Below are positions 16,790 to 32,877 of a DNA stretch of 64,000 nucleotides, one piece after another (position 1 is the first letter of the stretch; each line of letters starts with the position of its first letter). Below the pieces are notes generated by a model that did no database searches, was not told where the DNA came from, and saw only the letters and a program-made list of their open reading frames with translations. A program made the translations under genes and the position numbers. Source of the stretch: Roseibacillus sp. (GTDB lineage Bacteria > Verrucomicrobiota > Verrucomicrobiia > Verrucomicrobiales > Akkermansiaceae); contig CBDEUM010000018.1 of NCBI GenBank assembly GCA_965242925.1, positions 65,041-129,040 on the forward strand. Reading direction: 5' to 3'.

Positions 16790-17854
16790 ATGAGTATTGT
16801 CAGTAGGAGCTACGCCAGTCCGGATGCCGCCGATGCTCTCAAACGGCAGCGGCGCATGGCGAGCGTCACCAGTCTGGTCATCGCCATCCTGGTGGTGGCG
16901 CTGGTTGCGATTGTCCTTGCTCTCTTCCTCCTGCCCGCCTTCAGGCTGGAGGTGGCTCCGATCGTGGCTTATTCGGCGGAGGTGGAGGAAGAGGAGGTTG
17001 TCGAGCAGCCTGAAGTTACGCCTCAGGTGCAGCGCCAGCCCGCTGCTCCCAGCTCCACCATGGCAAAGGTGATCGCGACCTCTGTTCCCAGCCCCACGGC
17101 TGTTCCGGTGCCGGAAACCGATACTCCCGATCCGTCCATGGAATACGGGGACGGCGACGACTTCGGTGAAGGCTGGGGAGAAGGATCCGGATCCGGGCTC
17201 GGTGGAGGCACCAGCTTTTTCGGGGTAGCTTCCAGGGCGGAGCGCATCGCCTACGTCATCGACTACTCGGCATCCATGCGAGGGCAGGGGAGGGAGGAGC
17301 TGATGCGCAAGGAATTAATACGTTCGGTGGACCGGATCGCCCCCAAGACGAATTACGCTCTCATCTTCTTTGCCGGTCCGGCGTGGGTGGCGGGGGATGA
17401 GGTGGACTGGACCAAGAAGAAGGCGACCGTGACAGGGAAGGGTCGACGGAAATACGACTGGAAATCGCCCGGCACCGCTCATGAGTGGAAACAGGTCGGT
17501 GAGAAGGAACCCGTTGACTGGCTCAGAGCTACCGACGGACAGCTCTCCAAGTCACGCAAGATCATCAAGGAGACCCGCCTGGTGTGGGGGACGCGCTGGG
17601 ACAATCCCCTCCAGATGGCCCTCGACATGGATCCTCCGCCCCAGGTCATCTACTTCATGACGGATGGTTCGGCCAGGGGGTCGGACAAGTGGTCGCGCGA
17701 GATCGGAGCCAGGGCCAGGAGCCGTGGAATCAAGATCAATTGTGTGGCCATGATGCAGCCCAAGGCGCACGATGACATGGAGGATCTTGCCAAGAGAACC
17801 GACGGTCACTTCACCATCGTCATGCAGGGTGGACAGCGAAAGAAGGTGCGCTAG
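16790..17854 (+). CDS. Membrane-anchored von Willebrand factor A domain protein
   Basis: TM helix, Pro/Glu linker, MIDAS motif VIDYSASM, YFMTDG. Confidence 0.8.
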   Translation: MSIVSRSYASPDAADALKRQRRMASVTSLVIAILVVALVAIVLALFLLPAFRLEVAPIVAYSAEVEEEEVVEQPEVTPQVQRQPAAPSSTMAKVIATSVPSPTAVPVPETDTPDPSMEYGDGDDFGEGWGEGSGSGLGGGTSFFGVASRAERIAYVIDYSASMRGQGREELMRKELIRSVDRIAPKTNYALIFFAGPAWVAGDEVDWTKKKATVTGKGRRKYDWKSPGTAHEWKQVGEKEPVDWLRATDGQLSKSRKIIKETRLVWGTRWDNPLQMALDMDPPPQVIYFMTDGSARGSDKWSREIGARARSRGIKINCVAMMQPKAHDDMEDLAKRTDGHFTIVMQGGQRKKVR

Positions 17855-19625
17855 ATCCCCCGCTTCCCTCCTGAATCAATTCGGGGTATGCCGCGGTGGC
17901 AACGTTGCTGCAGAGTTGCACGATTTGCTTCGTTTCGGCGGCCTGCAGGCACTGGTCGGCCAGGGTTGAGCACTTCTCAAAATCGAGCAGGCGGACAGCC
18001 TGTTTCACCAGCGGGGCGAGGGGAGCGCCCACCGAGAGTTCATCCACGCCGAGGCCCACCAGGAGGGGAAGCAATATCAGGTCGCTCGCCATTTCGCCGC
18101 ATACCCCGGTCCAGATGTTATGCTGAGAAGCCCCGTCGATGACCATCTTGATCAATCGGACGACACCCGGGTGGGCGGAGCGATAGAGTTTTGCGACGCG
18201 TGGGTTCACGCGATCGACCGCTACCGTGTACTGCACCAGATCGTTGGTTCCGATGGAAAAAAAGTCGACCTCGGAGGCGATGTCGGCGGCGATCATGGCG
18301 GCGGAGGGGACTTCGATCATGGCGCCCACCGCGATATTCTGGTTGAACTCCACTCCGCGGGCAGTGAGTTCCGCTACACACTCAGCCAGCAGGCTCTTGG
18401 CCTGTTTTACCTCCCCGAGCCCGGAGATGAGGGGAAACATGAGCCCGACCCGGCCCGCGGTGCCGGCGCGCAGAATGGCGCGCAGCTGTTCCTTGAAGAG
18501 GTCCTTGCGGTCGAGAGAGAAGCGGATGCCTCTCCAGCCGAGGAAGGGATTCGGTTCCGGTTCGCTCAGGGGTTCCCCGGGAAGCTTGTCGCCCCCGGCG
18601 TCCAGGGTTCGGAAGATCACTTCGCTGGGTGCGGCGCGTCGTGCCACCCGCGAGTACAGCGCGGCTTGCTCCTCCTCATCGGGGCATTCCTCTTTCTCCA
18701 GCAGAAAAAACTCGGTCCGGAACAGGCCCACCCCCTCCGCCCCCGAGCGGTTCACCAGATCCAGCTCATCCTCGGACTTGATGTTGGCAGAGAGGATGAT
18801 TGCGTGTCCGTCGGTGGTGATCGCCTTCAGATCGCGCAACTTATCGAGTTCGGCCCGCCGGCGCTGGTGCTCTTCTTCCAGTTCGCGATATCTGGCGACC
18901 GTTTCCGGGGTAGGATTGGAGATCAATTTGCCCTCGTATCCGTCGAGGATACAGGAATCGAGGGCGTGCAGATTGAAGACAGCGTTGCGCAGGCCCACCA
19001 CCGCGGGAATACCCAGGGAACGGGCGAGGATGGCGGTGTGGGAGGTGACGCTGCCCTGTTCGGTTGCGAATCCCAGTACCTGGTGCCGGTTCATGGTCGC
19101 GGTGGCGGAGGGGCTGAGATCGTAGGCTACAAGGATGTGCAGGTGATCAGGATCGTCGGAAGCGGGTTCCTCGTGTTCCGTGTCAAAATTGCGCAGGACC
19201 CGTTGGCAGACATCCTCGATGTCGGTAGTGCGGTCGCGCAAAAAGGGGTCGGGGATGCGCCGCATCGACTCAAGCTGGTTCTGCATCACTGCGTAGAAGC
19301 AGTATTCGGCATTCTGCCGTCGTTCCTCGATGGCCTTGGGCACGCCCGTGAGCACAATCGGGTCCTCCAGGACCAGCATGTGGGCCTCGAAGATACGTCC
19401 TTCCTCGTTTCCGGAGAGGGACTCCATGTGTTCACGGAGACCTTTAAGCTGCCCATGGGTGCGGCGCAGGGCGTCTTCGAACCTTTCGGTTTCGCGGGCC
19501 ACGTTGGCGATGGGATAGACGTCGGGAGCCGAAAATCCCCGCGCGACTACATGGATCGGGCCGAACACGATCCCGCCTGAGACAGGAGTCCCCGCATAGA
19601 CCATTTCCTTCCTGACTCTGCCCAT
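17820..19625 (-). CDS. ptsI: PTS enzyme I (PEP-protein phosphotransferase)
   Basis: TSHTAILAR phospho-His site; GVGLFRTEF, NPFLGWRGIR, SIGTNDL and CGEMA motifs. Start is uncertain. Confidence 0.95.
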   Translation of the reverse strand: MGRVRKEMVYAGTPVSGGIVFGPIHVVARGFSAPDVYPIANVARETERFEDALRRTHGQLKGLREHMESLSGNEEGRIFEAHMLVLEDPIVLTGVPKAIEERRQNAEYCFYAVMQNQLESMRRIPDPFLRDRTTDIEDVCQRVLRNFDTEHEEPASDDPDHLHILVAYDLSPSATATMNRHQVLGFATEQGSVTSHTAILARSLGIPAVVGLRNAVFNLHALDSCILDGYEGKLISNPTPETVARYRELEEEHQRRRAELDKLRDLKAITTDGHAIILSANIKSEDELDLVNRSGAEGVGLFRTEFFLLEKEECPDEEEQAALYSRVARRAAPSEVIFRTLDAGGDKLPGEPLSEPEPNPFLGWRGIRFSLDRKDLFKEQLRAILRAGTAGRVGLMFPLISGLGEVKQAKSLLAECVAELTARGVEFNQNIAVGAMIEVPSAAMIAADIASEVDFFSIGTNDLVQYTVAVDRVNPRVAKLYRSAHPGVVRLIKMVIDGASQHNIWTGVCGEMASDLILLPLLVGLGVDELSVGAPLAPLVKQAVRLLDFEKCSTLADQCLQAAETKQIVQLCSNVATAAYPELIQEGSGGSSAPSFAVHPA

Positions 19626-19687
19626 TGGCCCGAGTTTGACGGGCGGGCGAGGGCTGGTCAATGCCGACAGGATTCACCTGAGAACGA

Positions 19688-19954
19688 TCAGATTTCCTCG
19701 AAGTTTCGGTTCACCAAATCTTCCAGAGCTTTCATAGCATCCTGAGCGTCAGATCCTTCTACGATTATATTGATGACGGAGCCATGACCGGCCGCCAGCA
19801 TCATCAGGCCCATGATGCTCTTTCCGTTCACCTCTTCACCGTCCTTTTCCACCCGGATATCGGCTTCGAACTTACTTGCCGTCTTCACGAATTGGGCCGC
19901 AGGCCGGGCGTGAATTCCGAGTTTATTGGATATGGTGAGTTCCTTGCTGGTCAT
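19688..19954 (-). CDS. ptsH: Phosphocarrier protein HPr
   Basis: GIHARPAA (His15) and GKSIMGLMML (Ser46) motifs. Confidence 0.95.
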   Translation of the reverse strand: MTSKELTISNKLGIHARPAAQFVKTASKFEADIRVEKDGEEVNGKSIMGLMMLAAGHGSVINIIVEGSDAQDAMKALEDLVNRNFEEI

Positions 19955-20296
19955 AGACAACATCTCAGCACGGGAAGTTTAGGTGGCAGCCCGGTTCGGA
20001 GGGAAGGCAAAACTCCCCGCCGTTCGTGAAGAACTGGTCATTAGCTTCATCGAACTTGAATTTCTGGGTGTTCAATCCGCCGATGCGGGTCATTTCGGGG
20101 AAGGAAGCTCCAGAATCCCGGCCTGAGAACGGGAGCGGACCGCTTTGCCCGGGGGGCAGTTCACCCGGGGTGGATCCACTGCAATCCGCGGAGGTTGGGA
20201 AAGTGGCTCGCCCCCTCGAAAAACGACTCTGCTTCCGGGTGCGGACGATGGCGGGAATGAGGGTTTTGACCAGGGGATTGCCGGACTCGCGGCTCC

Positions 20297-21262
20297 TCAG
20301 ATTGCCGGGTCGTTGCCCTGCATTTTGGCGAGGAGCTTCTGGTTGAACTCGTCGGCCATGTCGTAGCCGAGGCGGCGTAGTTGCAGGTCAAGGGCGGCCA
20401 CCGTCACGAGGCGGGCGGTGTCGCGTCCGGCGGCCACCGGAATCTCCACGTGGGGAACCGAGTGGTCGAGGATGACATGGCCTTCGCGGTGTAGGCCCAG
20501 ACGATCAACATTGTTGAGGTCGCGTTCGTCCTTCAGGGTGACCACCAGGTCGAGTCGTTTTTCCGGGCGGATGGAGGAAAGTCCGTAGAGGTTGGCTGCG
20601 TTGATGATGCCGATACCGCGCATCTCGATGTAGCCGCGGGCCAGATCCGGACAGGAGGCGATCAATTCGTCGCCGTGGCGTTTTATGCGAACCATGTCGT
20701 CCGCTACGAGAGCGCCACCCCGTTCGAGGAGACCAATGGCGGTTTCGCTTTTTCCTGATCCGCTGCTGCCAATGATGAGGATGCCCACGCCGCGGAAGTC
20801 GACCATGCAACCGTGCAGGGTGGTCGATTCCGAGAACTCCTGTTCGAGGAGAATGGAGGCGAGGTTGAGGAACTGCATGGTCACCATCGGGGTGCGGAAG
20901 ATGGTGAGCTTGTACTCGGAAGCGATGGCCAGCAGTTCGTCGGGAAGGATGTGATCGCGGGAGGTTACGACACAGGGGATGTTCTTTTCACAGACTTGGC
21001 GGAAGCGTTGGGCACGCAGGCTGGGGTTGAGTTTTTTGAGATAGGAAGCTTCCGAATTGCCGATGATCTGGATGCGCTTGTTGGCGAAGTAGGTGAAGAA
21101 ACCTGCCAGCGCGAGTCCGGGGCGGTTGGGGGCTGGTTCACGGATGGTTCGTTCGAAGCCGTCCTGCGAGTCACCGACCAACCTGAGCTTGAGGGCCTCA
21201 TGGTGGCGTTCGTAGAAGCGGCTCACGCTGATGGAGGTGATCTTTTTCACCCGGGATGCCAT
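20297..21262 (-). CDS. hprK: HPr(Ser) kinase/phosphorylase
   Basis: RPGLALAGFF, Walker A GSSGSGKSE, LVADD and EMRGIGII motifs. Confidence 0.95.
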   Translation of the reverse strand: MASRVKKITSISVSRFYERHHEALKLRLVGDSQDGFERTIREPAPNRPGLALAGFFTYFANKRIQIIGNSEASYLKKLNPSLRAQRFRQVCEKNIPCVVTSRDHILPDELLAIASEYKLTIFRTPMVTMQFLNLASILLEQEFSESTTLHGCMVDFRGVGILIIGSSGSGKSETAIGLLERGGALVADDMVRIKRHGDELIASCPDLARGYIEMRGIGIINAANLYGLSSIRPEKRLDLVVTLKDERDLNNVDRLGLHREGHVILDHSVPHVEIPVAAGRDTARLVTVAALDLQLRRLGYDMADEFNQKLLAKMQGNDPAI

Positions 21263-21465
21263 GGCCCCAAGGTAGTGCGTCCGGGGAAATATCTAAATGC
21301 TAAATCTCAGTTTCGAGACCTCAAACCACGGATTTCGGAGTCCAGGGGCGGACCGGACCTGCTCTTGGGCAGGAGCAGTGGCATTATGAGCGGTAATCCC
21401 TGGGGGTGTGCTGCGTGCGATGTCTTGCGGGGATTGGCGAATTCCCCAATGCAGGATCCCGCTGT

Positions 21466-22074
21466 TTAAACGGTGGTGTTCAGTTCCACGAGGGCGTAGT
21501 CGCTGTCCTCCCGCCGCTTGTAGACAATCTGGAGGACATTTCGCCGGGCGTTCTTGAAGAGGACGAACGGGCGATCGCTCAGTTCCAGTTCCATGAGCGC
21601 CTCTTCCTTGAAGAGAGTGGGCAGGTGGAAGGATTCCTCGCGGGTCTTGCTTGGCCCCGGCTCCGTTCCGTCGTGCTCCTCCTCAATGACGTGGGTATCG
21701 AGGAAATCAGACGCATAGATTTTCTCATCGAGAAACCTGATGGCATCCTTGGCGCGGGGGCGATGTCGCTTGAGGAGTCGCGTCTTGTGCTTTCGCATTC
21801 GGCGGGCGATCTTGTCGATGGTCTCGTCAGTGCTCTTGTACATGTCCTCGGTCTCGGAGGAAGCGTCGATGGTGATATGATTGGCGCAAAAGAGGAGAAT
21901 TTCAGCGGTGTGGCGTTTGCCCTGCACGTCCAGGATCGCTTTGGCCTCGATGATTTTCGGGTAGTCGAGATGAAGACCCTCAATCTTGCTGGTGGCGTAT
22001 TCCTTGAGGAAGGCGGTCGCCTGTTCGTGGCGGACGGTTATGGTGATGTGCGGTTTGAGGTTTGCGTTTTGCAT
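21466..22074 (-). CDS. hpf: Ribosome hibernation factor, long form (HPF/RaiA)
   Basis: ITVRH...DMYKSTDETIDKIARRMRKHK N-domain; EEALMELELSDRPFVLFKN...VYKR C-domain. Confidence 0.9.
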   Translation of the reverse strand: MQNANLKPHITITVRHEQATAFLKEYATSKIEGLHLDYPKIIEAKAILDVQGKRHTAEILLFCANHITIDASSETEDMYKSTDETIDKIARRMRKHKTRLLKRHRPRAKDAIRFLDEKIYASDFLDTHVIEEEHDGTEPGPSKTREESFHLPTLFKEEALMELELSDRPFVLFKNARRNVLQIVYKRREDSDYALVELNTTV

Positions 22075-22282
22075 TGGAATCTTGTCGTGGGTGAGGACGG
22101 GAAAAGAACTTTCGAACTCTCGATCCATCACCTTTCAACATAGAGCACTAAAGCCACGAGCGCTACTTCCTCCTTTTGGGGGATGTTTCGATTGTTGATT
22201 AATCGAACGTTCTCATCCGAATGGACGATCTCCCCATACGATCCTCCTATGGATTGTTGCAGGTCTTCCCCTGGCCGGCGAT

Positions 22283-22310
22283 TCTCAAGATCTCCTAGGA
22301 GATCTTGAGA
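22283..22310. other. Perfect 28-bp palindrome TCTCAAGATCTCCTAGGAGATCTTGAGA
   Basis: Read directly; lies 5 bp past the lptB stop. Confidence 0.9.
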
Positions 22311-22315
22311 TATGC

Positions 22316-23104
22316 TTACATGGAGAAGTTCTCGCCCAGGTAGTGGCGGCGGGCCACGGGGTCGTTGGCCAGTTGCTCGGAAGGCCCCTCCAGGACCACG
22401 CGGCCTTCGAGGAGAAGGTAGGCACGGTCGACGATCTGCAGGGTTTCGCGCACGTTGTGATCGGTGATGAGCAGGGAGATGCCGTAGTCGTTGCGGAGTT
22501 GCTTGATGATCTCCTGGATATCAAGAACTGCGATGGGATCGACGCCGCTGAACGGTTCGTCGAGCATAAGGAGGCTGGGCTCGGTGCAGAGTGACCGTGC
22601 TATTGAGAGGCGGCGTTTTTCTCCACCGGAGAGCGTGAGAGCAGAGGAGCGGCGCACGCCTTCGATGCCGAAACGCTCTAGCAACTCTTCGCAGCGGGCA
22701 TGTCGCTGTCTGCGATTCAAGTCGCGACGGGTCTCCAGGACAGCCAGGAGATTCTGCTCTACGCTGAGCTTGCGGAAGATGGATTCTTCCTGGGGGAGAT
22801 AGCCGAGGCCGTGGCGGGCCCGCTTGTGCATGGGCAACCGGGTAACGTTACGGTCGCCCATGCGAACCTGACCAGCGTCGGGGGGAATGAGGCCGGCGAT
22901 CATGTAGAAGGTAGTGGTTTTGCCGGCCCCATTGGGGCCAAGCAGACCAACCACTTCACCTGGCCCCACCGTGAGGCTCACGCTCTCCACCACCGGGCGG
23001 CCGCTGTAGACCTTGCGGAGGCCCTCCACCTGCAGGACAGGTGAAGCCGCTCCCGGGGCCGGGATGGGGATCGGTTGTGGTTGTTGTTCAGCGTTGGCGT
23101 CCAC
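22316..23104 (-). CDS. lptB: LPS export ABC transporter ATPase
   Basis: GPNGAGKTTTF, YLPQEESIFRKL, LSGGEKRR, DEPFSGVDP and ITDHNVRETL motifs. Confidence 0.95.
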   Translation of the reverse strand: MDANAEQQPQPIPIPAPGAASPVLQVEGLRKVYSGRPVVESVSLTVGPGEVVGLLGPNGAGKTTTFYMIAGLIPPDAGQVRMGDRNVTRLPMHKRARHGLGYLPQEESIFRKLSVEQNLLAVLETRRDLNRRQRHARCEELLERFGIEGVRRSSALTLSGGEKRRLSIARSLCTEPSLLMLDEPFSGVDPIAVLDIQEIIKQLRNDYGISLLITDHNVRETLQIVDRAYLLLEGRVVLEGPSEQLANDPVARRHYLGENFSM

Positions 23105-23118
23105 GTTAATACCGATGG

Positions 23119-25629
23119 CTAGTTTGTTTTCTCGTTGCGAAGCTTTTCGAAGTTTTTGTCCTTGAGGTCAAAGAATTGTTCCCAGGCGCCGCGGGAAAGC
23201 TCAAAGCTGCCATTTGGATGGAAAAGGATGTAGAGGCCGTTCTCGCGGGCTTCGAAGAAGCTCTTTCCCTGACGGATTCCAGGGCGTCCGCCGCGCAGGG
23301 CGAGGATTCCCGAGCTGGCCTCGTAGGTGGCGGCGGTGGAGTTGGCCACCACCGGTTGCGCGCCGGCTCCGGGGATGCGGGTGATGAAGACATTCCCGAG
23401 GGCCACGATCTTATCGACATCGGAAAACGCTTCCGGTCCTTTCAGGCGATTTTCCGTGGTTTCTTCACGCCGGGTCAGAGTGATGCGCATGCTATCACTG
23501 CAGCGCAGGCGGAAACGTGGCTCTTGCACCGCGATCTCACCGAGGTAGACAACCTCGCCCTTGATTGAATCGAAGTAGAACCCGCCCTCGCATGTCACGG
23601 TGATAAGCTCGGCCGTTTTTTTCTTTTCACCCTTCCTCCGGCGCAGATTGGCGAGGTCGCCGGTGGTGATCCACGGGCCTGGTTCGGCAAAGAGGCTGCC
23701 GTTTTCGTAGAAGCGCATGTAGAGATCGGGCTTTCCGCCCCGCAGGGAATTGTCACCCTGGCTGATGGCAGGCGTTCCTCCGCGCAGCATGATGTTTGCA
23801 GTCGCCACGTCGAGAATGGCATGTTGAGCGGTCGCAATGACAGCGGCGCGTTTTCCGTCGGGATCTTCCCGGATAAGACGCACCCTGCCGCTGGCCACCA
23901 CGTGGGTAATATCGGAGAAGGCTTCCGGTCCGGCCAAGTCCCCGCCCGAGGCTTCGGGTTTCCTTCCCAGGAAGATCTTGATCTCGTCGTCGGCCTGGAT
24001 GTGAAATTGCGGATGCTGGACCTTGACGTCCTTGAGATAGACGATGTGGCCCTCCCGTGCGTCGAAGTAAAGGCCGCCACGGGAGGTGACGACGACCAGT
24101 TGCGGTTTTCCGGCTTCTCTTCCGGGCTTCACCTCCGCCTTTTTGTCGTTGTCACCTCTCTCGCGTCCCTGCGGGGAAGGTGGGTTGGCGGGTGCAGAGG
24201 GTTCGGAATCTCCGCCGGTCGGATGTCTTGTCGCGGGTGTCGCGTCGGGTGAGGGCTTCTCCCGGGTGTCGGCGCCATTCCCCAGGTGCTTGAGAGCGGA
24301 GAGGTCGCCCACGGTGGTCCAGAGGCCTTCCTCTGCATAGAAGTCCCCGTTCTGGTAGAGGCGGAGATAGAGATCGGGGCTCCCAGCGGTGAGGGAGTTG
24401 AGTCCCTGGCTGATGGTGGGGGTGCCGCCTTGCAGGACGATGTCTCCGGTGCGACGGTTGACGACGGCGGTCTCACCGGTGGCGATGCTGGGCGGATTCC
24501 TGCCGGAGGGATCCTTGAGAGTCACCCGCACCCCACCTGAGATCACGAAGAGGTAGGGGTCGACCAGTTCGGAAAAGGTTTTTTCTTTTTCCCGGTTCCC
24601 ACCCTCCACCGGGGGGGTGTTGTCCCTGCTGGATGTATCCGAGTTTCTGATGGCCTTGGAGAGATCCTGGGGGGGGAAGAAAACCTTGAGGTGTCCGGCG
24701 CAGGTTAGCGTGAAGCGGGACTCGGTAACCTCGATGTTGCGGAGGTAGGAAATGTGCCCGCGCTCGGGGTTGAGGAACATGCCGCCTTCCGCCGTGATCA
24801 GGACTTCTCCCCCGGTTGCTTTGACGGGCGGAGGAGTTACAGGGTTTCCCTGGGAGACGGGGGAGAGGAGTTTTGATTCCGGAATCTGTATGGTATGCGA
24901 AAAGCTGCGAAGGTCGGCATCCGCCTTTCCGCTCGACTGACGGCTTTGAGTCATGAAGTTGCGCGTGGGAGCACGGTTGGCGAGGACTGACCTGGTGCGC
25001 GACTGGAGGAGGGTGTCGATCTTGCGGCGTTCTGTGCCGGTCAGGCCTTCAGGTCCCGTGAAAGCGGTGGCGAGTTCGCTAAGACCCGCAGGCGAGAGGG
25101 GATTTTCCGGGGGGTGTTCATTTTTTCCGGAGGCAGGAGGATTCCCTTTCGGGTTGTCCGACGCGGTCAAGAGGGTGGAGACCGGACCGCGTAAGAAGCC
25201 GGAGCGGGACTCCAGGTGGAAGATGCCTCCTGCTCCCTGGCCCCGGATCTTCTCACCGCGCAGGGTGATGACCTTATGGGCCCGGAGTATTCCCGTGTTG
25301 AGGGAGAAGTTTGCTGAGCCCATGCGCATGCGGATCAGAACGGAGTCGTCCTGAAAATAGCGCAGAGCAATATTCTCTGCGCGGAGGTCCCGCTTGGTGA
25401 GAACCTTGAGGAAGTCGGATTGCAGGAGCGCCATGCGCTCGAGCTTCTTGTTGAAGACGGGGATGCGGACTTCCTTCAACATGCTCCCGGCCGGCAGGTT
25501 GTCCATTATTGGCCCCAGTTTCTGGTAGGGGAGTTCCGGATTCTTTCCCTCCGGCTCCTCCTGTGCCGGTGCGCGTTCGGGGCCGGTCCCGAAAAGGACG
25601 AGAGCCAGAAGAAGCGGAGAAGCACGCAT
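23119..25629 (-). CDS. Large periplasmic LptC/LptA(OstA)-like multi-repeat protein
   Basis: Occupies the lptC-lptA position between kdsA and lptB; signal peptide; one LptC-like segment plus three beta-strand-rich repeats. Confidence 0.65.
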   Translation of the reverse strand: MRASPLLLALVLFGTGPERAPAQEEPEGKNPELPYQKLGPIMDNLPAGSMLKEVRIPVFNKKLERMALLQSDFLKVLTKRDLRAENIALRYFQDDSVLIRMRMGSANFSLNTGILRAHKVITLRGEKIRGQGAGGIFHLESRSGFLRGPVSTLLTASDNPKGNPPASGKNEHPPENPLSPAGLSELATAFTGPEGLTGTERRKIDTLLQSRTRSVLANRAPTRNFMTQSRQSSGKADADLRSFSHTIQIPESKLLSPVSQGNPVTPPPVKATGGEVLITAEGGMFLNPERGHISYLRNIEVTESRFTLTCAGHLKVFFPPQDLSKAIRNSDTSSRDNTPPVEGGNREKEKTFSELVDPYLFVISGGVRVTLKDPSGRNPPSIATGETAVVNRRTGDIVLQGGTPTISQGLNSLTAGSPDLYLRLYQNGDFYAEEGLWTTVGDLSALKHLGNGADTREKPSPDATPATRHPTGGDSEPSAPANPPSPQGRERGDNDKKAEVKPGREAGKPQLVVVTSRGGLYFDAREGHIVYLKDVKVQHPQFHIQADDEIKIFLGRKPEASGGDLAGPEAFSDITHVVASGRVRLIREDPDGKRAAVIATAQHAILDVATANIMLRGGTPAISQGDNSLRGGKPDLYMRFYENGSLFAEPGPWITTGDLANLRRRKGEKKKTAELITVTCEGGFYFDSIKGEVVYLGEIAVQEPRFRLRCSDSMRITLTRREETTENRLKGPEAFSDVDKIVALGNVFITRIPGAGAQPVVANSTAATYEASSGILALRGGRPGIRQGKSFFEARENGLYILFHPNGSFELSRGAWEQFFDLKDKNFEKLRNEKTN

Positions 25630-25718
25630 GGGAGGGAGCTGGAGCGTAAGGGCCTGGGTTATGGACTAGACGTTCTGGCTGGAAAGGGCAGGGCTGTTCT
25701 CCGGGGCGGGGAGCGCCG

Positions 25719-26537
25719 TCAGGTGGAGAGAGCCCGGTGAATCTTCATCAGGGAGATGAGGACGGCTTCGATCTGTCCAAGGGAAATCTGGTTGGGTCCG
25801 TCGGAGAGAGCTTCCGCAGGGTTGGAGTGTGTTTCCATGAAAATGCCATCCACTCCGGTGGCCATTGCGGCGCGGGCCAGAACGGGGGCCAGTTCTCCGT
25901 CGCCTCCGGTCGTCCCTCCCAGGCCACCCGGACGCTGGACCGAATGAGTAGCGTCGAAGATGACGGGAATGCCCTCCTGTCGGATCCAGTAGAGGGAGCG
26001 CATGTCGGCCACCAGGTTGTTGTAGCCAAAGGTCGTCCCGCGTTCGGTGATGAGGAATCGTTCGCAACCGAAGGAACGCAGCTTACCGGCAATATTGGTG
26101 CAATCCCAGGGGGCGAGGAACTGGCCTTTCTTCACGTTCACGGCCCGCCCGGTGGCGGCACAGGCCTCCAGTAGATCGGTCTGGCGGCAGAGGAAAGCGG
26201 GCACTTGGAGAAGGTCGACATGCTCGGCCGCGATCGCAGCCTCCTCCGCCGTATGGATGTCGGTGGTGACCGGGATACCGAGTTCTCTCCCGATCTCACC
26301 GAGGATGCGGCATCCCGCTTTCACACCTGGTCCACGGTAGGAATCGATTGCCGTACGGTTGGCCTTGTCGTAGGAGGCCTTGAAAAGGAGGGGCACGTCC
26401 AGGCGGGAGGAGATTTCAGTGAGGGCGCGCGCCATTTCCCAGGCAAACTCCTCGCTTTCCAGGCCACAGGGGCCGAGGATGAAAAAGGGGTGCCCTCCGC
26501 CAACTTCGACGTTCTGGATCGTGAAGGAATCTACCAT
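25719..26537 (-). CDS. kdsA: KDO-8-phosphate synthase
   Basis: KASYDKANRT, PAFLCRQTD, VKKGQF, ERG and DATHSVQ motifs. Confidence 0.97.
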   Translation of the reverse strand: MVDSFTIQNVEVGGGHPFFILGPCGLESEEFAWEMARALTEISSRLDVPLLFKASYDKANRTAIDSYRGPGVKAGCRILGEIGRELGIPVTTDIHTAEEAAIAAEHVDLLQVPAFLCRQTDLLEACAATGRAVNVKKGQFLAPWDCTNIAGKLRSFGCERFLITERGTTFGYNNLVADMRSLYWIRQEGIPVIFDATHSVQRPGGLGGTTGGDGELAPVLARAAMATGVDGIFMETHSNPAEALSDGPNQISLGQIEAVLISLMKIHRALST

Positions 26538-26775
26538 CGGTTCGTGGTGCCACCACCATGCCGCAGGCTGGGGACTGATTCAATAGCGGGATTGGGCCGG
26601 GAGGACTTCTTGCCTCCGGATCCGGTTTCCCGGGGTCCCGATGAGAGTGGAATGCCCTGCCAGGGATGGCTGTCAGCGGCAAAGTTCCGGGGGTGTCCTC
26701 GGGATTTCCGCTGCTTGCGGCAACAATCCGTGCCGCCCTCCCTCCCTATCGCTGCAGGCGCTGCAGAAGGTTGAA

Positions 26776-27045
26776 TCAGGCTCCGGCAGCCTCCCCCTGT
26801 GCCTCAACCTCGGAGTGGAGGGAGCGTAGATTCAGCAAGGCGGTTTGAAGGAGCTTGTCTTCTTCCGGTGTTCGATTGCCCGTGGTCTTGTTTTCCAGCA
26901 TCTCAAGCGAATCGAGAACCGAACGGGCGGCCTTGATATTCACTTCCAGCTTTCCACTGGTGGGATTGGGGACCTGGCCGAGGAACATTCCTGCGTTCTG
27001 GGCCTGCAGGATGACAAAGTCGGCGAAGCGTGGGTCGTTCTCCAT
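26776..27045 (-). CDS. DUF1844 family protein
   Basis: LGQVPNPTSG...ARSVLDSLEMLENKTTGNRTPEE pattern. Confidence 0.75.
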   Translation of the reverse strand: MENDPRFADFVILQAQNAGMFLGQVPNPTSGKLEVNIKAARSVLDSLEMLENKTTGNRTPEEDKLLQTALLNLRSLHSEVEAQGEAAGA

Positions 27046-27155
27046 GAGGTGTCGTCGGGACGGTTACACCGGATGAAGGCAGAAGGCCAGTCGTTACCAC
27101 ACGCGAAATCTCTGAGGGTTTCCTCCGGTCCTGCAGAAGTCGGACGGATGGGCAT

Positions 27156-29702
27156 TCAGGGACCGGTCTGAGGGCTGACTGTTGCGATGACCGGGTCTCT
27201 CCCGAAGTACCTCCGGGCGGTGGCAAGGATCTCTTCAGCAGTGAGGGACTTGACTCTTTCAGCGTGTTCGAGGTGGTGGAGGGGCCCAAGGCCGAAAAGG
27301 GTGTTGAGGGCACAGACCTGCGCCATGGAGTGGTTGCTCTGGTTTTCGAGTGCATCACTGGCCAGAACGCTGGTCTTGGCATGGGCCAGGGGATTCTCCG
27401 GGATGCCTTCTTGGGTGAGGATCTCTATCTGGGTAAGCAGTTCGCGGCGGGCCACGTCAGCCTGATCGGGCGCTGTTCCCACGTAGAAAGCGAAGAGCCC
27501 GGTACCCAGGCCGTGAAACTGGGTGGCATTGACGTAGTAGGCCAGTCCCAGTTCTTCCCTCAGTCGCGTGAAGAGGGGGCCAGCCATGTTGGCGCAATAC
27601 TCGTGGATCAATTCCAGGGCGGGGATGTCCTCGGAGGTGATGTGGGCACCCGGGTAGCCGATGGCAATGACAGCCTGTTCCTTGGTCAGACGCCTGGAGA
27701 CCTCGCCGGAATTGATCTCTTGCCCGGTTCCGGAGGCGGTTTCGCTGGTCGATCCTTCAGGGAGGGAGGCAAAGATCCCCTCACATAGGTCCGCGGTGGC
27801 ATCGGGATCGATGTCTCCAAAAACGGCCAGCACACCGTTCTGGCGCGTCATGAAGCGGAGGTGGTGGTCAAGGAGGGCCTGGCAGTCGATTTTTTCGAGC
27901 GATTCCTCGGTGCCGAGACGTGGGAGGCCATAGTGCCGATCTCCAAAGAGGGTGCTGCGCAGGAGCCGGAAGGCCGTCTTGAGGGGATCTTCCATCGCTT
28001 CCCGAAGGTCCGTGCGTTGAACCTCACGTTCCCGGGTGAGCGTATCTTCCTGAAAGGCCGGTATGCTCAGCGCTTCCCCTGACAAGCCGAGGACGGTAGC
28101 AAGGTCGGGCTGGAGACAGAAGGAGGACACGATGGTGGTGTTGTTGCCCGCGCTGGCGTGCACGGTTGCACCAAGGGACTCAACCTCCCGGGCGAATTCA
28201 CCGCCGGGGTGGTCCGTGGTGCCCCTGGTGAGAAGGGATGCATGCAGCGGATTAATGCCGCAGTTCCCGGGAGTCTCCGCCAGGCGGCCTGCACGGAAGA
28301 CACCCTGAAAATGCACGGTGGGCACCCTGGGGTCAGGCCGCAGCACGAGGGTGATCCCGTTGTCGAGGGTCCGCGTTGTGATTTCACCCGGAGCCTTGCT
28401 CGAACGTGTCACATGAGCAGGGGCATGCGTCTCGGTGGGATCGAGAGATGTGATGGTGAGCCCATCAGGTCGGAGATAGTGGTGAGCCACCCGCACGAGG
28501 TCGTTGGGGGTTACCTGATCGAGCAGATCAAGGTAGTCACGGGTGAAATCGAGGTTACGTGCCTCATGCCAGTTGGAGGCCAGATCAGCAGCGCGTCCCG
28601 AGGCGGTGGCGAGGGTTTTGAACTGACTGGCGAAAACCTGCCGACGGGCCCTGTCGAGAGCCGGTTGCAGTTCGCTTTCGAGGGCCGGGGTGAGTTCGGC
28701 GAGGACGGCCTGCTCCAGGCGGTCACGTTGATCATGATCGACCTCCGCGGAAATACTGAACATTCCGGGGCCGTCTGCGGGACTCCAGGCCCAGGTTCCG
28801 ATGTAATGGGCGAGTCCCTCCTGCTCGTGGAAGCGGCGGTAGAGGTAGGACGATCGCCCTCCTCCGAGTGCGCCGGAGAGCAGTTCAAGGGCGGGGGTAT
28901 CCGGGTGATCGAGTCCCGGCGTCTGCCACGCCAGGGTGGTTTTGCTGACCGGGATGGCGAAAGGTTGGCGCGCTTCCCGTTGTCCGAGTTGACGGGGTTC
29001 CTGTAGACCATTGACCCGGGAGAGAGCCCGGCCGGGCAGGCGCTCACTCATCTGTTCCAGGTTGGCCAGGACGGTGGTGCGGTCGAAGTCGCCCGAGAGA
29101 ACAAAGATGCTGTTGGAAGGGAGGTAGCACCGGCGGTGATAATCCATCATGTCTTCGTAGCTGAGGGCGTCGAAGAGTCTGCGATGTCCGATGACGGGAT
29201 GGCGGCGGGGGTCGTGCTGAAAGAAGGTCTGAAAGAGGAGTTGGCTGGCGGCGGAGTCAGGATCGTCCCGGCCCATGTCAATCTCGCGCCGGATCACTTC
29301 GCGCTCGGTTTCGAAATCCTCCTCCGGGAAGCTGGGGAGGAAGGCCAGTTCGAAGAGGATATGGACAAAGGTGTCACAGGCAGTGCTGGGACCATCGATG
29401 TAATAGACTGTCCGGTCCAGGGAGGTGTAGGCATTCCATTGCCCTCCCGCGGAGTTTACGCGGGTGGCCAGTTCCGCTCCCGGAAAGGAATCCGTGCCTT
29501 TGAACACCATGTGTTCGAGGAGGTGCGAGAGTCCGCTGCCGGAGAAGTGCTCCTCGTGCTGGCTGCCGGTCGCGATCCAGCACTGGGCGGAGACAACCGG
29601 GGCGGTTTGATCCACCTGCATGATGACAGTAAGCCCGTTGGAGATGGTGTGCAGCGAGGCGTCGGTGGCGGGGAATTGCATTGGTTGTCGGAGGAGAGGC
29701 AT
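27156..29702 (-). CDS. M16 family (pitrilysin-like) zinc peptidase with fused halves
   Basis: SHLLEHMVFKG (HxxEH), NAYTS and EREVIRRE motifs; second half lacks the catalytic motif. Confidence 0.93.
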   Translation of the reverse strand: MPLLRQPMQFPATDASLHTISNGLTVIMQVDQTAPVVSAQCWIATGSQHEEHFSGSGLSHLLEHMVFKGTDSFPGAELATRVNSAGGQWNAYTSLDRTVYYIDGPSTACDTFVHILFELAFLPSFPEEDFETEREVIRREIDMGRDDPDSAASQLLFQTFFQHDPRRHPVIGHRRLFDALSYEDMMDYHRRCYLPSNSIFVLSGDFDRTTVLANLEQMSERLPGRALSRVNGLQEPRQLGQREARQPFAIPVSKTTLAWQTPGLDHPDTPALELLSGALGGGRSSYLYRRFHEQEGLAHYIGTWAWSPADGPGMFSISAEVDHDQRDRLEQAVLAELTPALESELQPALDRARRQVFASQFKTLATASGRAADLASNWHEARNLDFTRDYLDLLDQVTPNDLVRVAHHYLRPDGLTITSLDPTETHAPAHVTRSSKAPGEITTRTLDNGITLVLRPDPRVPTVHFQGVFRAGRLAETPGNCGINPLHASLLTRGTTDHPGGEFAREVESLGATVHASAGNNTTIVSSFCLQPDLATVLGLSGEALSIPAFQEDTLTREREVQRTDLREAMEDPLKTAFRLLRSTLFGDRHYGLPRLGTEESLEKIDCQALLDHHLRFMTRQNGVLAVFGDIDPDATADLCEGIFASLPEGSTSETASGTGQEINSGEVSRRLTKEQAVIAIGYPGAHITSEDIPALELIHEYCANMAGPLFTRLREELGLAYYVNATQFHGLGTGLFAFYVGTAPDQADVARRELLTQIEILTQEGIPENPLAHAKTSVLASDALENQSNHSMAQVCALNTLFGLGPLHHLEHAERVKSLTAEEILATARRYFGRDPVIATVSPQTGP

Positions 29703-29820
29703 CGTTATTGGGGCGAGTGGTGAGGCAGGTCAAGCGGGATGCCTGCCACGACCGTTCTGCCAAGGACCGGGATTCCCTAAATTCCCTTGGCGTGAGGGGG
29801 TGATTTGCTAGAAGAGCTTT

Positions 29821-30318
29821 ATGTCCCGGCCGGTTGTTGTCGTCATTACCGTCATTTTGCTCCTTGGTCTGGTGGGGGGAGGAATCCTGGGCTGGATGTT
29901 CATGAGCAGGGATCGGGTGGGCGTTCTGAATTACCAGGTACAGGTGGAGGAGGGGGCCAATATGCGGGAGGTTCTTGCGAAGGAAGAGGAGTTCCTGCAG
30001 AGCGATCAGGTTCTCAAACAGGTGATCAAGAACCTGAGCCTCATCGAGGGGTGGAGCATGGATTCCGAGGAGGAAGCGCTCTCTCACATGCGCACCAAGC
30101 TCATCGTGAAGGAAGACCGGATAGGTGCCCGCGTGCGGGTGATCTATCGGGACCGCAAGCAGAATCGGGCCCTGGAGATCCTGCAGGAGATCAAGAAGGT
30201 TTTCACCCCGATACGCTCTGAGGCCGTTCGTAGGAATGAGTTGCCACCGCTCATGCCCATGGATGACGAGGGAGCTGAGGATGATTCCAATTGGGCTCCC
30301 CTGCCGGCAAGTCCCTGA
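29821..30318 (+). CDS. Hypothetical single-TM protein (weak Wzz/chain-length-determinant-like features)
   Basis: N-terminal TM helix; EFLQSDQVLKQVIKNL motif. Confidence 0.6.
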   Translation: MSRPVVVVITVILLLGLVGGGILGWMFMSRDRVGVLNYQVQVEEGANMREVLAKEEEFLQSDQVLKQVIKNLSLIEGWSMDSEEEALSHMRTKLIVKEDRIGARVRVIYRDRKQNRALEILQEIKKVFTPIRSEAVRRNELPPLMPMDDEGAEDDSNWAPLPASP

Positions 30319-30349
30319 GACTGGTCGACAAGCTGCTCTCGCAGGAGGC

Positions 30350-32776
30350 TCAATCAGCGCCGACTTTCAGGGGCAGGTTGATGGAGGGAAACTCGCGGAG
30401 AGTGAGACCGATCATGGCACCGAACTCGTCGTCGTAACGGTGGTTGCGGTGGAAAAGTCCGAGTGAGACGACCCAGTTGTCGAAGGTGCGGTGGACAGAG
30501 TAGTGCTGGTATTCCAGGACACTGTCGTCGATTTCCCATCGGTGACTGAAGCCGGCTCCCCAGTCCTTGTTGAATCGTTTGAAGGCTCCGTACTCGAAGC
30601 GGATGGAATCCTGCAGGATGGGATGGTCATTGAGGAAGCGATGTCGGACAGTGAGCTCCAGGTTGTCGGTGGGCATATAGCGGAGGGAACCCACTATCTC
30701 GGTGAAATCTCCCACTTTGCTCAGGAGTGGAAACTGGGTTTCCAGTCCCAGCTCAAGCCACGGGACGGGATGAAAATAGATTTCATTGTAGAAGTTGGAA
30801 AACTCACGATCAAATTCTGGATCTTCCTGGAACCAGTCCAGATAGGAATTGATGGAAAGCCACTCATGGCTGCCGCCGTCGCGCTTTGTAAGGAAGCGGT
30901 TGCGAACGCCCAGACGGATGATGGTCCAGTCCTCAATATCGTCGATGGCAGTGAAGCGGCCTATCCCCAGCGGGCGGGGACGGGTGCTGGTGGTGAGACG
31001 GTCGATGCGGGGAAAACTGGCATCCAGTTCGTTGGTGGCGATCCACGAGGCCCCCGCGTAGGGTTGGACGACGTGCAGGAGACTGTCCAGACCCAGGGCA
31101 TCGCTTTCTACTTCGGGAAAGGAGCGGGAGAACTTTACGGAGGCGTCGACCCCGGCGTAGATGTGGGTACGTTCTTCGTTGCCTTCAGGGCTCTCAACGT
31201 TGTGGTAGGTGGTGGAACCGAGTCCGGCCCGCGGGACGAGGTTGAGCCGGTTGTCGAGGCGCATGGGAAGGGAGAATTCCTGCCAGAGGTGGAGGCGGGT
31301 GTAGCCATGTTCGGCCAGGATGGTGTTGATTTCGGTGATGCGCGGGTCGCCGGGTTGCAGGGAGGCCGCTTCGGCCTTCAGGCTGCGACGACCAAAGGTG
31401 GGAAGGTGTTCGTTGTAGAGACCGGCCACAAATTGTCCTTCGTGCAGAATAGGCGAGTTGAAGAGGGGCTGCCGGACCTGGTCGAGGGCGAACTCGGGCA
31501 GGCGGGTATCGGTCCGGTAGAAGGAGTTGGGACGCAGCCGGGTCCACAGGGTGAGCAGGTTGCGTTCGCGCCGGTGGGTGAGAGCGAGGGTGTTGTCGGG
31601 ATTGGGTTCTACCCGGAAGGTGCTTGGGTCGTAATCCTCCAGGTAGAAGCGGTCACTGAGATAGGTCAGGTTGGCGTCGAGGTGGCTGGTGCCGCCCGGA
31701 ACTACGTCGGGGAGCCGGAGGCGGTGGCGCAACTGGAGGCGGAAACGGTTTTCGGCCACATTTGCACGCCGGATGCCACTCCGGTTTTGGGTCGAGTCGA
31801 AGTCGCGGATGTGGTAGAGCTTGAGCCAGCCTAGGTTTGGGTTTTCGCGCTGCCGGGTATCGAAGAAGTCGACCCCGGTTCCTGCACCGCGTTTGGTAAG
31901 AAGGTCGAGATGCCACTGGGAGAGCAGCCATGCGTCCCTGCGTTCACCGGTCCGGGGGTCTTTGTCGCCTCCGAGCATGAGCCCATAGCGGTTGAGGAGG
32001 TAGGGGCCCCAGTTTGAACGAGCTCCCGGGATGAAGTGGTATCCCAGTTCCGTGTTAAGAGGCTGTGCCAGATAGGGCAGCCAGAAGACCGGCCTGTCTC
32101 CGGCATAGAGCTTCATGTCGCGGAAGATGACCTTGTCGCCCGGGATGACAGTGGTCCTTGCCGCCCGCACCCAGAAGGCGGGATCCCTGATGTCGTGGGT
32201 GGTCACGCCCGCATCCTCGCCCACGAAGAGGGTGCGTCCATCACTCTGCACCATTCGAAATCTGTCGGCTTCAAGGAGAATGGGGTCCATGCCGATGCGC
32301 AGGCCGTCTCCCTCCAGGCGCTCTTCCTCATACCAGTAGGTGGCCGATTTGCCGCGATGCAGGATTGCACCCTGGTAAACGGACACATTTCCGGTGAAGC
32401 GTACGAATTTCCCCTGCAGGTTTATGACGATGTCGTCCGCAAAGAGCTGAATTCCGTTGTTGGTACGGCATTGCATGTTGCCGTGGTAGAGGATGAGTTC
32501 CTTCTTCGCGTCCCATCTGGTTTCGTAGTCCTCGCCGATGATGCGGAGACTCTCGGGCATGGTGGGGACCAGGGTGAAGGGATCCCCAGGCCCCCCGGAT
32601 CCGTTCCCCTCCGGAATGTTCAGCAATTCCTCCCCGGTGGGCGGGGGATCGATCTCCTGGCCGGAACAGGGCGGCGGGACCAGAAGGACAAGGGCGCAGG
32701 ACAGCGAAACGATCGTGCCTTTTGGCGCTTGATCGGTATTTCGGTGGTTCCCGCTCGCCACTCGCCGCAAAGGCAT
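30350..32776 (-). CDS. lptD: LPS assembly outer-membrane protein LptD
   Basis: N-terminal OstA-like strands, PVFWLPY motif, long beta-barrel region; lies near other lpt genes. Start is uncertain. Confidence 0.75.
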   Translation of the reverse strand: MPLRRVASGNHRNTDQAPKGTIVSLSCALVLLVPPPCSGQEIDPPPTGEELLNIPEGNGSGGPGDPFTLVPTMPESLRIIGEDYETRWDAKKELILYHGNMQCRTNNGIQLFADDIVINLQGKFVRFTGNVSVYQGAILHRGKSATYWYEEERLEGDGLRIGMDPILLEADRFRMVQSDGRTLFVGEDAGVTTHDIRDPAFWVRAARTTVIPGDKVIFRDMKLYAGDRPVFWLPYLAQPLNTELGYHFIPGARSNWGPYLLNRYGLMLGGDKDPRTGERRDAWLLSQWHLDLLTKRGAGTGVDFFDTRQRENPNLGWLKLYHIRDFDSTQNRSGIRRANVAENRFRLQLRHRLRLPDVVPGGTSHLDANLTYLSDRFYLEDYDPSTFRVEPNPDNTLALTHRRERNLLTLWTRLRPNSFYRTDTRLPEFALDQVRQPLFNSPILHEGQFVAGLYNEHLPTFGRRSLKAEAASLQPGDPRITEINTILAEHGYTRLHLWQEFSLPMRLDNRLNLVPRAGLGSTTYHNVESPEGNEERTHIYAGVDASVKFSRSFPEVESDALGLDSLLHVVQPYAGASWIATNELDASFPRIDRLTTSTRPRPLGIGRFTAIDDIEDWTIIRLGVRNRFLTKRDGGSHEWLSINSYLDWFQEDPEFDREFSNFYNEIYFHPVPWLELGLETQFPLLSKVGDFTEIVGSLRYMPTDNLELTVRHRFLNDHPILQDSIRFEYGAFKRFNKDWGAGFSHRWEIDDSVLEYQHYSVHRTFDNWVVSLGLFHRNHRYDDEFGAMIGLTLREFPSINLPLKVGAD

Positions 32777-32877
32777 AGGGTAATGGACTCTCATTCGGAG
32801 GCTCGAAACAATCAAAATTGTTTGGGAAATGGTCCTGCGATTTATTGAAAAGGACGGGGATACCGGGGCTTTTCAAA

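Follow-up and report, generated by a model that had tools for sequence, protein, structure and literature searches.

How many LptA molecules make up the lipopolysaccharide (LPS) bridge is stated as unknown or debated in passages of two papers (PMC7347655, PMC7237710). A locus of Roseibacillus sp. raises the question whether a gene can set this number. The window, by which we mean the whole stretch of 64,000 nucleotides (nt) analysed here (contig CBDEUM010000018.1 of assembly GCA_965242925.1, positions 65,041 to 129,040), contains on its reverse strand a single open reading frame (ORF) of 836 amino acids (aa) at 23119..25629. The ORF list and the translation placed kdsA on its upstream side and lptB on its downstream side. 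A preliminary description, made by a model from the letters alone, had noted one such protein between the two genes and proposed that it fuses LptC with three LptA units. The position was borne out by the matches of the neighbours (kdsA 377 bits, lptB 342 bits). Comparison of its sequence with those of its relatives indicated that the 836-aa protein is probably the LPS bridge, with LptC and three LptA units in one chain.

The motifs VLITAEGG, VVVTSRGG and ITVTCEGG began at residues 276, 512 and 676 (nt 24804, 24096 and 23604). They mark three repeats of approximately 155-175 aa (R1, R2 and R3), which were mutually homologous in blastp comparisons, as had been described. R1 and R2 were 36% identical over 172 aa (E 1.7e-39), R2 and R3 37% over 150 aa (E 3.3e-34), and R1 and R3 29% over 174 aa (E 2e-18). 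The N-terminal segment, designated N, gave no significant blastp match to any of the repeats (best E 0.06).

Profiles of N and of the repeats were aligned by hhalign with Pfam-validated domains from other Verrucomicrobiota. The N domain matched the LptC domains at 96.2% (E 2.5e-9, 105 columns) and the LptA domains at 0.4%. The repeats (alignment A2) matched the LptA domains at 98.3% (E 1.5e-14, 108 columns) and the LptC domains at 0.1%. Merged profiles, in which the domains of the window family were combined with the validated ones, were searched against the Protein Data Bank (PDB). The top nine matches of the merged repeat profile were all LptA or LptH (best 8onu, E 1.2e-5); those that covered the full domain spanned approximately chain residues 13-118, and four were partial. 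The top five matches of the merged N profile were all LptC (best 3my2, E 9.8e-4, LptC residues 67-167). Homology to validated domains and to solved structures was thus found for both the LptA and the LptC parts. The merged LptA profile also matched the LptD N-terminal alignment of the genus (hhalign 86%, E 5e-6). Domains were also excised from eight orthologues, and of the resulting 24 single repeats, scanned individually, 15 matched PF03968 (LptD_N) weakly (best E 3.4e-4).

In a sister genus (g2), two adjacent genes lie between kdsA and lptB. One encodes the N domain and the other a single repeat, and both have a start and a signal peptide of their own. The N-ORFs of g2 passed the Pfam LptC family (cut-off 21), with 28.8 bits in G042, 23.2-23.9 in G051, 27.3 in G135 and 24.3 in G105. 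The proposed fusion of LptC with three LptA units is supported by these split genes, together with the reciprocal profile matches, the PDB matches, the positional orthology with separate genes and the failure to find another lptA or lptC in the genome, the last two of which are given below.

The gene order lptD-M16-DUF1844-kdsA-X-lptB-(hpf)-hprK, in which X is the 836-aa gene or its orthologue, recurred in 19 related loci to the limit of each contig. These loci are from metagenome-assembled genomes of Roseibacillus, Akkermansiaceae or Verrucomicrobiales. X adjoined kdsA and/or lptB in all 19, of which 16 extended to lptB. In other families of Verrucomicrobiota, canonical small lptC and lptA genes fill the same slot. 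Their order was kdsA-lptC-lptA-lptB in L049 and L051, and lptC-lptA-lptB in L050 and L052, where kdsA was not within the locus. In agreement with this slot content, the LptA and LptC genes of Methylacidiphilum are tabulated as adjacent (Table 1 of PMC10542722).

The stop of the 836-aa gene was separated from the lptB start by a 14-nt gap. With this gap and the synteny in relatives, the LptA-type part lay directly upstream of lptB. LptC was likewise encoded immediately upstream of lptA-lptB, as the N-terminal part of the same gene; its counterpart is a separate adjacent gene in g2 and in the canonical lineages. The synteny with lptB expected in the preliminary description was therefore seen: the gene occupied the lptC-lptA slot in every relative examined.

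The genome from which the window comes (G000) is 89.9% complete. In this genome, matches of the repeat profile were confined to the three modules, and those of the N profile to this gene. PF06835 (LptC) gave no match, and the only PF03968 match was weak and lay inside lptD. No separate lptA or lptC was thus found, in line with the fusion proposed. The LPS pathway was present, with LpxC (305 bits), kdsA, lptB, lptD and one LptF/G gene (L003 1435-2778, reverse strand). Each of the ten genomes sampled from the genus had at least two LptF/G matches. Since a second LptF/G is absent here though present in relatives, the assembly has gaps, and claims of absence call for caution. A candidate for the second gene on contig C37 proved not to be an LptF/G.

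These gaps bear on the possibility that the 836-aa protein has an OstA fold but another cargo or role, the true lptA and lptC being in the unassembled ~10% of the genome. The incompleteness, the missing LptF/G gene of relatives and the lack of a Pfam match of the whole protein would agree with it. We consider it very improbable, because the gene is in the exact lptC-lptA slot in every relative examined. Moreover, in a survey of the family (121 genomes, 20 genera), 117 genomes had a repeat-profile match, and in these the sole matches were orthologues of the 836-aa gene. The PF06835 matches in the family fell on the orthologous N-ORFs.

Several observations weigh against the assignment of the protein as an LptC-LptA bridge. 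Pfam and NCBIfam scans of the whole protein gave no LptA or LptC match. The curated cut-off of PF03968 was not reached by the whole protein, and the own-genome scan gave no match to it in the gene. The cut-offs of PF06835 and TIGR04409 were reached neither by the protein nor elsewhere in its genome. R2 alone scored 19.5 bits on PF03968 (profile positions 10-103 of 113), just under the cut-off of 20.4. The unmerged repeat profile had LptA as its best PDB match at only E 0.0042, and the unmerged N profile had no relevant PDB match. The N domain aligned to only about 100 residues of LptC (67-167), without the membrane helix. Direct stacking of LptC on LptA is not guaranteed, because a linker of ~100 aa parts N from R1. 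The jellyroll fold and the head-to-tail stacking of the modules are predicted purely from homology. LptE (PF04390) was not found in the genome scan, a result that is uninformative given the divergence of this family. Because of the 89.9% completeness and the missing LptF/G, a separate lptA or lptC could strictly still lie in a gap. Contigs of two RNA libraries (95-99% identity) covered parts of N, R1, R2 and R3, with some bins uncovered, and one of them (23048-23223) bridged the stop of the gene and the lptB start; they are compatible with expression but not proof of transcription. With these points taken into account, the chain most probably consists of a signal peptide, an LptC-type domain, a linker and three LptA-type modules. 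Public copies are labelled 'hypothetical protein' because the whole-protein Pfam and NCBIfam scans yield nothing relevant; one public source names an orthologue LptA, and many orthologues bear a precomputed PF03968 hit.

The preliminary description had also taken the N-terminus to be a cleavable signal peptide in place of the membrane anchor of LptC. This fits the sequence, in which an uncharged core of 15 residues precedes a conserved A|Q site. Ala22 was invariant, and Gln23 at least 90% conserved, among 20 orthologues. Short hydrophobic N-terminal cores were similar across the family, and also in the LptC-bearing chains of two other families, f5 and f12 (see below). The N-terminus therefore looks like a Sec signal peptide that would be cleaved, and not like the ~20-residue membrane helix of LptC. 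The single N-terminal transmembrane helix that anchors LptC to LptB2FG was not found in the 836-aa protein. LptC of E. coli is functional without its helix. A periplasmic location of the protein is predicted from its signal-peptide-like N-terminus, and LptC without a membrane helix would appear to be the normal state in the whole phylum.

Selection on the different parts was estimated from dN/dS (the ratio of nonsynonymous to synonymous substitution rates) over eight species pairs. All modules were under purifying selection. The low-complexity linkers, which had been pointed out in the preliminary description, evolve almost freely (dN/dS 0.2-1.2 vs 0.02-0.29 in the domains; 0.20-1.17 for the two spacers). 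Among 39 three-module proteins, the linker from N to R1 was 95-120 aa long and the R1-R2 linker 11-60 aa, that of the window being the longest. Strains 93% identical to it (793-aa variants) were 43 aa shorter in the R1-R2 linker. The R2-R3 linker was 4-8 aa long in all 39.

These lengths bear on whether the modules act in series at all. A single module could be in the bridge, with the others serving as spare docking sites, LPS buffer or regulators, and the R1-R2 linker, disordered and 60 aa long, and the N-R1 linker of 100 aa would let the modules fold back. Such an arrangement is quite improbable in view of the equally strong purifying selection on all three modules, the short R2-R3 linker in 39 of 39 proteins, and the linkers of f5, which are all short. 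The 4-8-aa R2-R3 linker suits direct end-to-end packing; the N-R1 and R1-R2 linkers are long and do not fix the geometry.

The conserved segment within the N-R1 linker (aa 186-262) was found throughout the family of one-module N-R proteins, and also in g2, N-terminally in the separate lptA-like gene. It had no Pfam or PDB match, and hhalign gave at most 0.2% against all LptC, LptA and LptD N-terminal profiles. On this ground, a degenerate jellyroll was rejected (at most 0.2% against all jellyroll profiles). The linker DNA contained no meaningful tandem repeat. A MinC match (whole-protein phmmer, E 5e-4) fell in the low-complexity linker and was dismissed. On visual inspection, the C-terminal end of R3, W-E-Q-F-F-D-L-K, was similar to that of the only module in the one-repeat orthologue of G180, a member of the same genus, and not to the WTTxGDL ends of R1 and R2.

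The source of the window is a metagenome-assembled genome, and a public relative (P0040) is a frameshifted contig. An artefact of assembly or gene calling, that is, a collapsed or duplicated repeat or fused ORFs, was considered for these reasons. Its probability is negligible. The repeats are only 29-37% identical, and every repeat position formed its own clade across species, with values of 96, 100 and 99 in the Shimodaira-Hasegawa-like approximate likelihood ratio test (SH-aLRT). Independent assemblies and runs agreed, without indels. In run X1, which may be the window's own source, one DNA contig covered the whole stretch with three differences. In run X6, from another study, the stretch was covered in three pieces, with no indels. 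At least half of the gene's sampled words were present in fourteen DNA runs, and some of them in 20 rows in all, from 16 sea-water studies. The 659-aa 'short form' of P0040 was rejected as a true intermediate, as this public metagenome contig is frameshifted and reads as nonsense after R1.

Positions of the features of the 836-aa gene, its neighbours in the window and the long chains of other lineages
Feature	Sequence	Position	Strand	dN/dS	Remarks
Whole gene	window	23119..25629	-		Signal peptide, LptC-type domain, linker and three LptA-type modules (predicted); 39 full-length orthologues share the N-R-R-R architecture
Sec-type signal peptide (aa 1-23)	window	25561..25629	-		15-residue uncharged core; proposed cleavage after Ala22, before Gln23
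N domain (aa 30-165)	window	25135..25542	-	0.02-0.29	Predicted LptC-type half jellyroll, by profile homology
Low-complexity spacer (aa 166-185)	window	25075..25134	-	0.20-0.71	Mean pairwise identity 23%
Conserved linker segment (aa 186-262)	window	24844..25074	-	0.09-0.26	Mean identity 60%
R1 (aa 272-447)	window	24289..24816	-	0.09-0.25	First LptA-type module; low-complexity insert of ~26-30 aa; repeat alignment A2
R1-R2 low-complexity linker (aa 448-507)	window	24109..24288	-	0.49-1.17	Length-variable
R2 (aa 508-663)	window	23641..24108	-	0.14-0.24	Second LptA-type module
R2-R3 linker (aa 664-671)	window	23617..23640	-		Short, Lys/Arg-rich
R3 (aa 672-826)	window	23152..23616	-	0.07-0.22	Third LptA-type module; repeat alignment; proposed docking on LptD N-domain
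kdsA	window	25719..26537	-		Upstream neighbour; NCBIfam KDO8P synthase equivalogs, 377 (NF003543) and 359 bits
lptB	window	22316..23104	-		Downstream neighbour; TIGR04406, 342 bits vs cut-off 240
lptD	window	30350..32815	-		5 kb upstream of the 836-aa gene; PF04453, 29.4 bits vs cut-off 22.4; N-terminal OstA-type domain at ~aa 75-250
f5/f12 chain, L078	G054:C1	3884-5740	+		
f5/f12 chain, L079	G018:C10	5139-7124	-		
f5/f12 chains, L041, L042, L046, L047					
g2 long ORF, L076	G147:C117	2169-4913	+		915 aa
g2 long ORF, L077	G105:C48	3279-5585	-		769 aa

We propose that the whole periplasmic part of the LPS transport bridge is encoded here as one secreted polypeptide. Its LptC-type domain would dock at the inner membrane, on the parts of the transporter LptB2FG that face the periplasm. 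A linker of ~100 aa, including the conserved segment, would follow. The three LptA-type jellyrolls would then come in series, stacked head-to-tail, with a floppy linker of 60 aa between R1 and R2 and a linker of 8 aa between R2 and R3. R3 would dock on the N-terminal jellyroll of LptD. LPS, the presumed cargo, would be extracted by LptB2FG and pushed along the continuous hydrophobic groove of the modules to LptD, as in E. coli, with ATP hydrolysis in LptB as the driving force. The number of LptA units would be set by the gene and not by self-association.

A preprint (bioRxiv 10.1101/2022.12.25.521893) reports on LptC and LptA of E. coli fused by engineering: the fusion was stably complexed with LptB2FG, and it sustained ATP-dependent transfer of LPS to LptD in vitro. 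This suggested that a covalent LptC-LptA chain is workable. The engineered fusion resembles the window protein in being such a chain. It is man-made, with one LptA unit and E. coli domains, whereas the window chain is natural, with three units and long linkers.

Compared with LptC and LptA of E. coli (PDB 3my2, 6mit and 2r19/2r1a), the window gene has the same two domain types, the same place upstream of lptB, and the same proposed role in handing over LPS. It differs in being one polypeptide instead of two, with three LptA units fixed in place of an undefined oligomer. A signal peptide replaces the membrane helix of LptC, the LptC part aligns only to approximately residues 67-167, and there is an extra conserved linker segment of ~77 aa. 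The sequence of the whole protein is too diverged for Pfam. AsmA-like proteins (YhdP and TamB) have been proposed, in part of a preprint (bioRxiv 10.1101/2023.10.05.561070), as single polypeptides that span the periplasm with a continuous lipid groove. They are unrelated to the window protein in sequence, their cargo is phospholipid, and they are not driven by an ABC transporter.

How the three-module form is distributed was examined by a profile search of 1.84 billion representatives, which gave 590 relatives, 285 of them at E 1e-10 or better. Among 188 proteins examined, 115 were N-R, with one module and ~400-500 aa. The 39 N-R-R-R proteins were all in the close clade of the query. A complete two-module form (N-R-R) was found in none of the 188.

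In the family survey, at least three module matches in one ORF of ~780-850 aa were found in 9 of the 11 sampled genomes of the window's genus and in the window's genome. The remaining two genomes of the genus, G180 and G254, had one module match each, that of G254 on a fragmentary contig. G180 carries a one-module gene of ~433 aa at the same kdsA-X-lptB locus. Matches were found in 105 of the 109 genomes of the other 19 genera. One match was present in 99 of these and two in the other six, which represent split or weak second hits, or the long form of g2. The one-module N-R fusion of the family is orthologous to the window gene. It has the same locus, signal peptide, N domain, conserved linker and module type, with one LptA module as opposed to three.

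Because each repeat position formed its own clade in a quick tree, tripling happened once, before the three-module species diverged. The three-module form thus appears, on the phylogeny, to have arisen by tripling within one genus from a one-unit LptC-LptA fusion common to the family. The order of the duplications differed between two quick trees. In the first, R3 grouped with the nearest single-module proteins (SH-aLRT 82) and R1 with R2 (90). In the second, P0044 grouped with R1 and R2 (SH-aLRT 87).

Long chains were also present outside this family. Two other families had single ORFs in which a clear match to Pfam LptC (33-47 bits) preceded two to four stretches of LptD_N (70-115 bits). The five ORFs examined in f5 (619-662 aa) encoded a signal peptide, then LptC, then three LptA modules joined by short linkers; lptB and hprK came next wherever the region extended far enough. 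In genus g30 of f12, LptC was followed by four to five module matches in 839-932 aa, with lptB next, in the four ORFs of four examined. A sample of 151 genomes of the phylum had small separate LptA ORFs in most families. In this sample, two to four LptD_N matches were found in 13 of 15 f5 genomes, sharing one ORF of 619-666 aa where listed, and in 19 of 24 f12 genomes, the listed ones within ORFs of 679-1132 aa.

A subset of g2, the small-genome sister, had a separate lptC-like gene, then an ORF of 769 or 915 aa, between kdsA and lptB. The 915-aa ORF (G147) had four diverged LptA-type module matches, and the 769-aa ORF (G105) two confident and two weaker ones. Pfam scans of two such ORFs of g2 (G147 and G102, both as partial reads) gave no match. 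Automatic cluster labels of the ESM Atlas, which are unchecked, include an 858-aa Lentisphaerota cluster and Omnitrophota clusters of ~300 aa with both LptC and LptD_N.

The modules of the window family formed one clade (SH-aLRT 99), apart from those of f5 and f12. Modules were therefore multiplied independently at least three times. The f5 (LptC and three LptA) and f12 (LptC and four to five LptA) chains share the design of the window gene and its position upstream of lptB. They differ from it in their independent origin, their short linkers, the lack of the conserved linker segment, and scores above the Pfam cut-offs.

We tentatively suggest that the number of LptA units is genetically encoded and evolvable in this phylum, having been multiplied on at least three separate occasions (this genus, f5 and f12), and probably also in the g2 subset, with a change from one to three within one genus. 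Sister species with one and three units would then be a natural experiment on the number of jellyrolls that span the periplasm. Repeat number, which the preliminary description had proposed to compare across Verrucomicrobiota, did vary between lineages, from one to five. The three-unit form was not a trait of the Planctomycetes-Verrucomicrobia-Chlamydiae (PVC) group.

Why this genus has three modules was considered in terms of bridge length. The preliminary description had invoked a wide PVC-type periplasm. A related possibility is that three modules make a physically longer bridge and that the periplasm of this genus is wider than that of its one-module relatives. Module number differed sharply, with one in 99 of the 105 matching genomes of sister genera and at least three in 9 of 11 of this genus, and other families have three (f5) or four to five (f12). 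About four OstA-type domains have been proposed to span the E. coli periplasm, in a passage of PMC3944529, so that module count plausibly tracks distance. On the other hand, the trait is at the level of the genus and not PVC-wide. TamB, where complete in three-module genomes (G189 and G207; n=2), was 1202 and 1204 aa long, compared with ~1150-1210 aa in most one-module genera. A wider periplasm therefore seems unlikely to us, and the PVC-wide rationale is unsupported, as tripling was confined to one genus and the length of TamB in the two three-module genomes did not exceed that in most one-module genera.

No TamB was detected in G000, G168 or G198, and G180 had only a fragment. The TamB open frames of the family fell into two length classes, ~1150-1350 aa and ~1850-1930 aa. 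The longer class occurred in several one-module genera; examples of TamB matches in the family are those of G197, G188, G185, G162, G211 and G159.

The unchanged length of TamB would agree with another explanation, in which tripling hard-wired an oligomer: the head-to-tail association of one-module chains was made covalent, and the bridge length did not change. LptA of E. coli oligomerises head-to-tail in vitro, with the monomer number in the bridge described as above (PMC7347655, PMC7237710, in part), and independent lineages converge on LptC with at least three modules. A difficulty is that, in one-module chains, each added LptA unit brings a dangling LptC domain and its linker. We regard this explanation as possible, though somewhat unlikely.

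If the 836-aa protein is the LPS bridge, the gene itself specifies the stoichiometry, LptC with exactly three LptA units; an orthologue with one unit occurs within the genus. Structural work on the complete bridge of E. coli has been hampered by the tendency of LptA to oligomerise, as noted in the preprint on the engineered fusion (bioRxiv 10.1101/2022.12.25.521893). The fused chains would be ready-made monodisperse substrates for such work. Comparing them with their relatives would also show whether the length of the bridge follows the width of the periplasm or self-association was replaced. The family escapes Pfam and NCBIfam at the level of the whole protein and is labelled 'hypothetical protein', which would mislead any survey that counts these bacteria as lacking lptA and lptC.

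The LPS transport system and its domains are already known, and domain databases automatically label such architectures in better-conserved lineages. New are the encoded stoichiometry, the change from one to three within a genus, the lack of a membrane helix and the conserved linker. Neither a natural LptC-LptA fusion nor a tandem LptA was found described in the full-text literature searched, passages of Speth et al. 2012 (PMC3422733) included, most subscription journals being outside the coverage.

A scan of the gene region for promoters and terminators gave nothing above shuffled sequences. Downstream of lptB are hpf, hprK, ptsH and ptsI. The conserved cluster thus extends in the window over 17820-32815 on the reverse strand, in the order lptD, M16 peptidase (848 aa), DUF1844, kdsA, the lptC/A chain, lptB, hpf, hprK, ptsH and ptsI. 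In this cluster rpoN is not between lptB and hpf, where it lies in E. coli. Elsewhere in the genome, the LpxC match (G000:C22:136077-136880, forward strand) lies within an open frame of 617 aa, about twice the usual length of LpxC. LpxC may here be fused to a lipid A or fatty-acid gene next to it.

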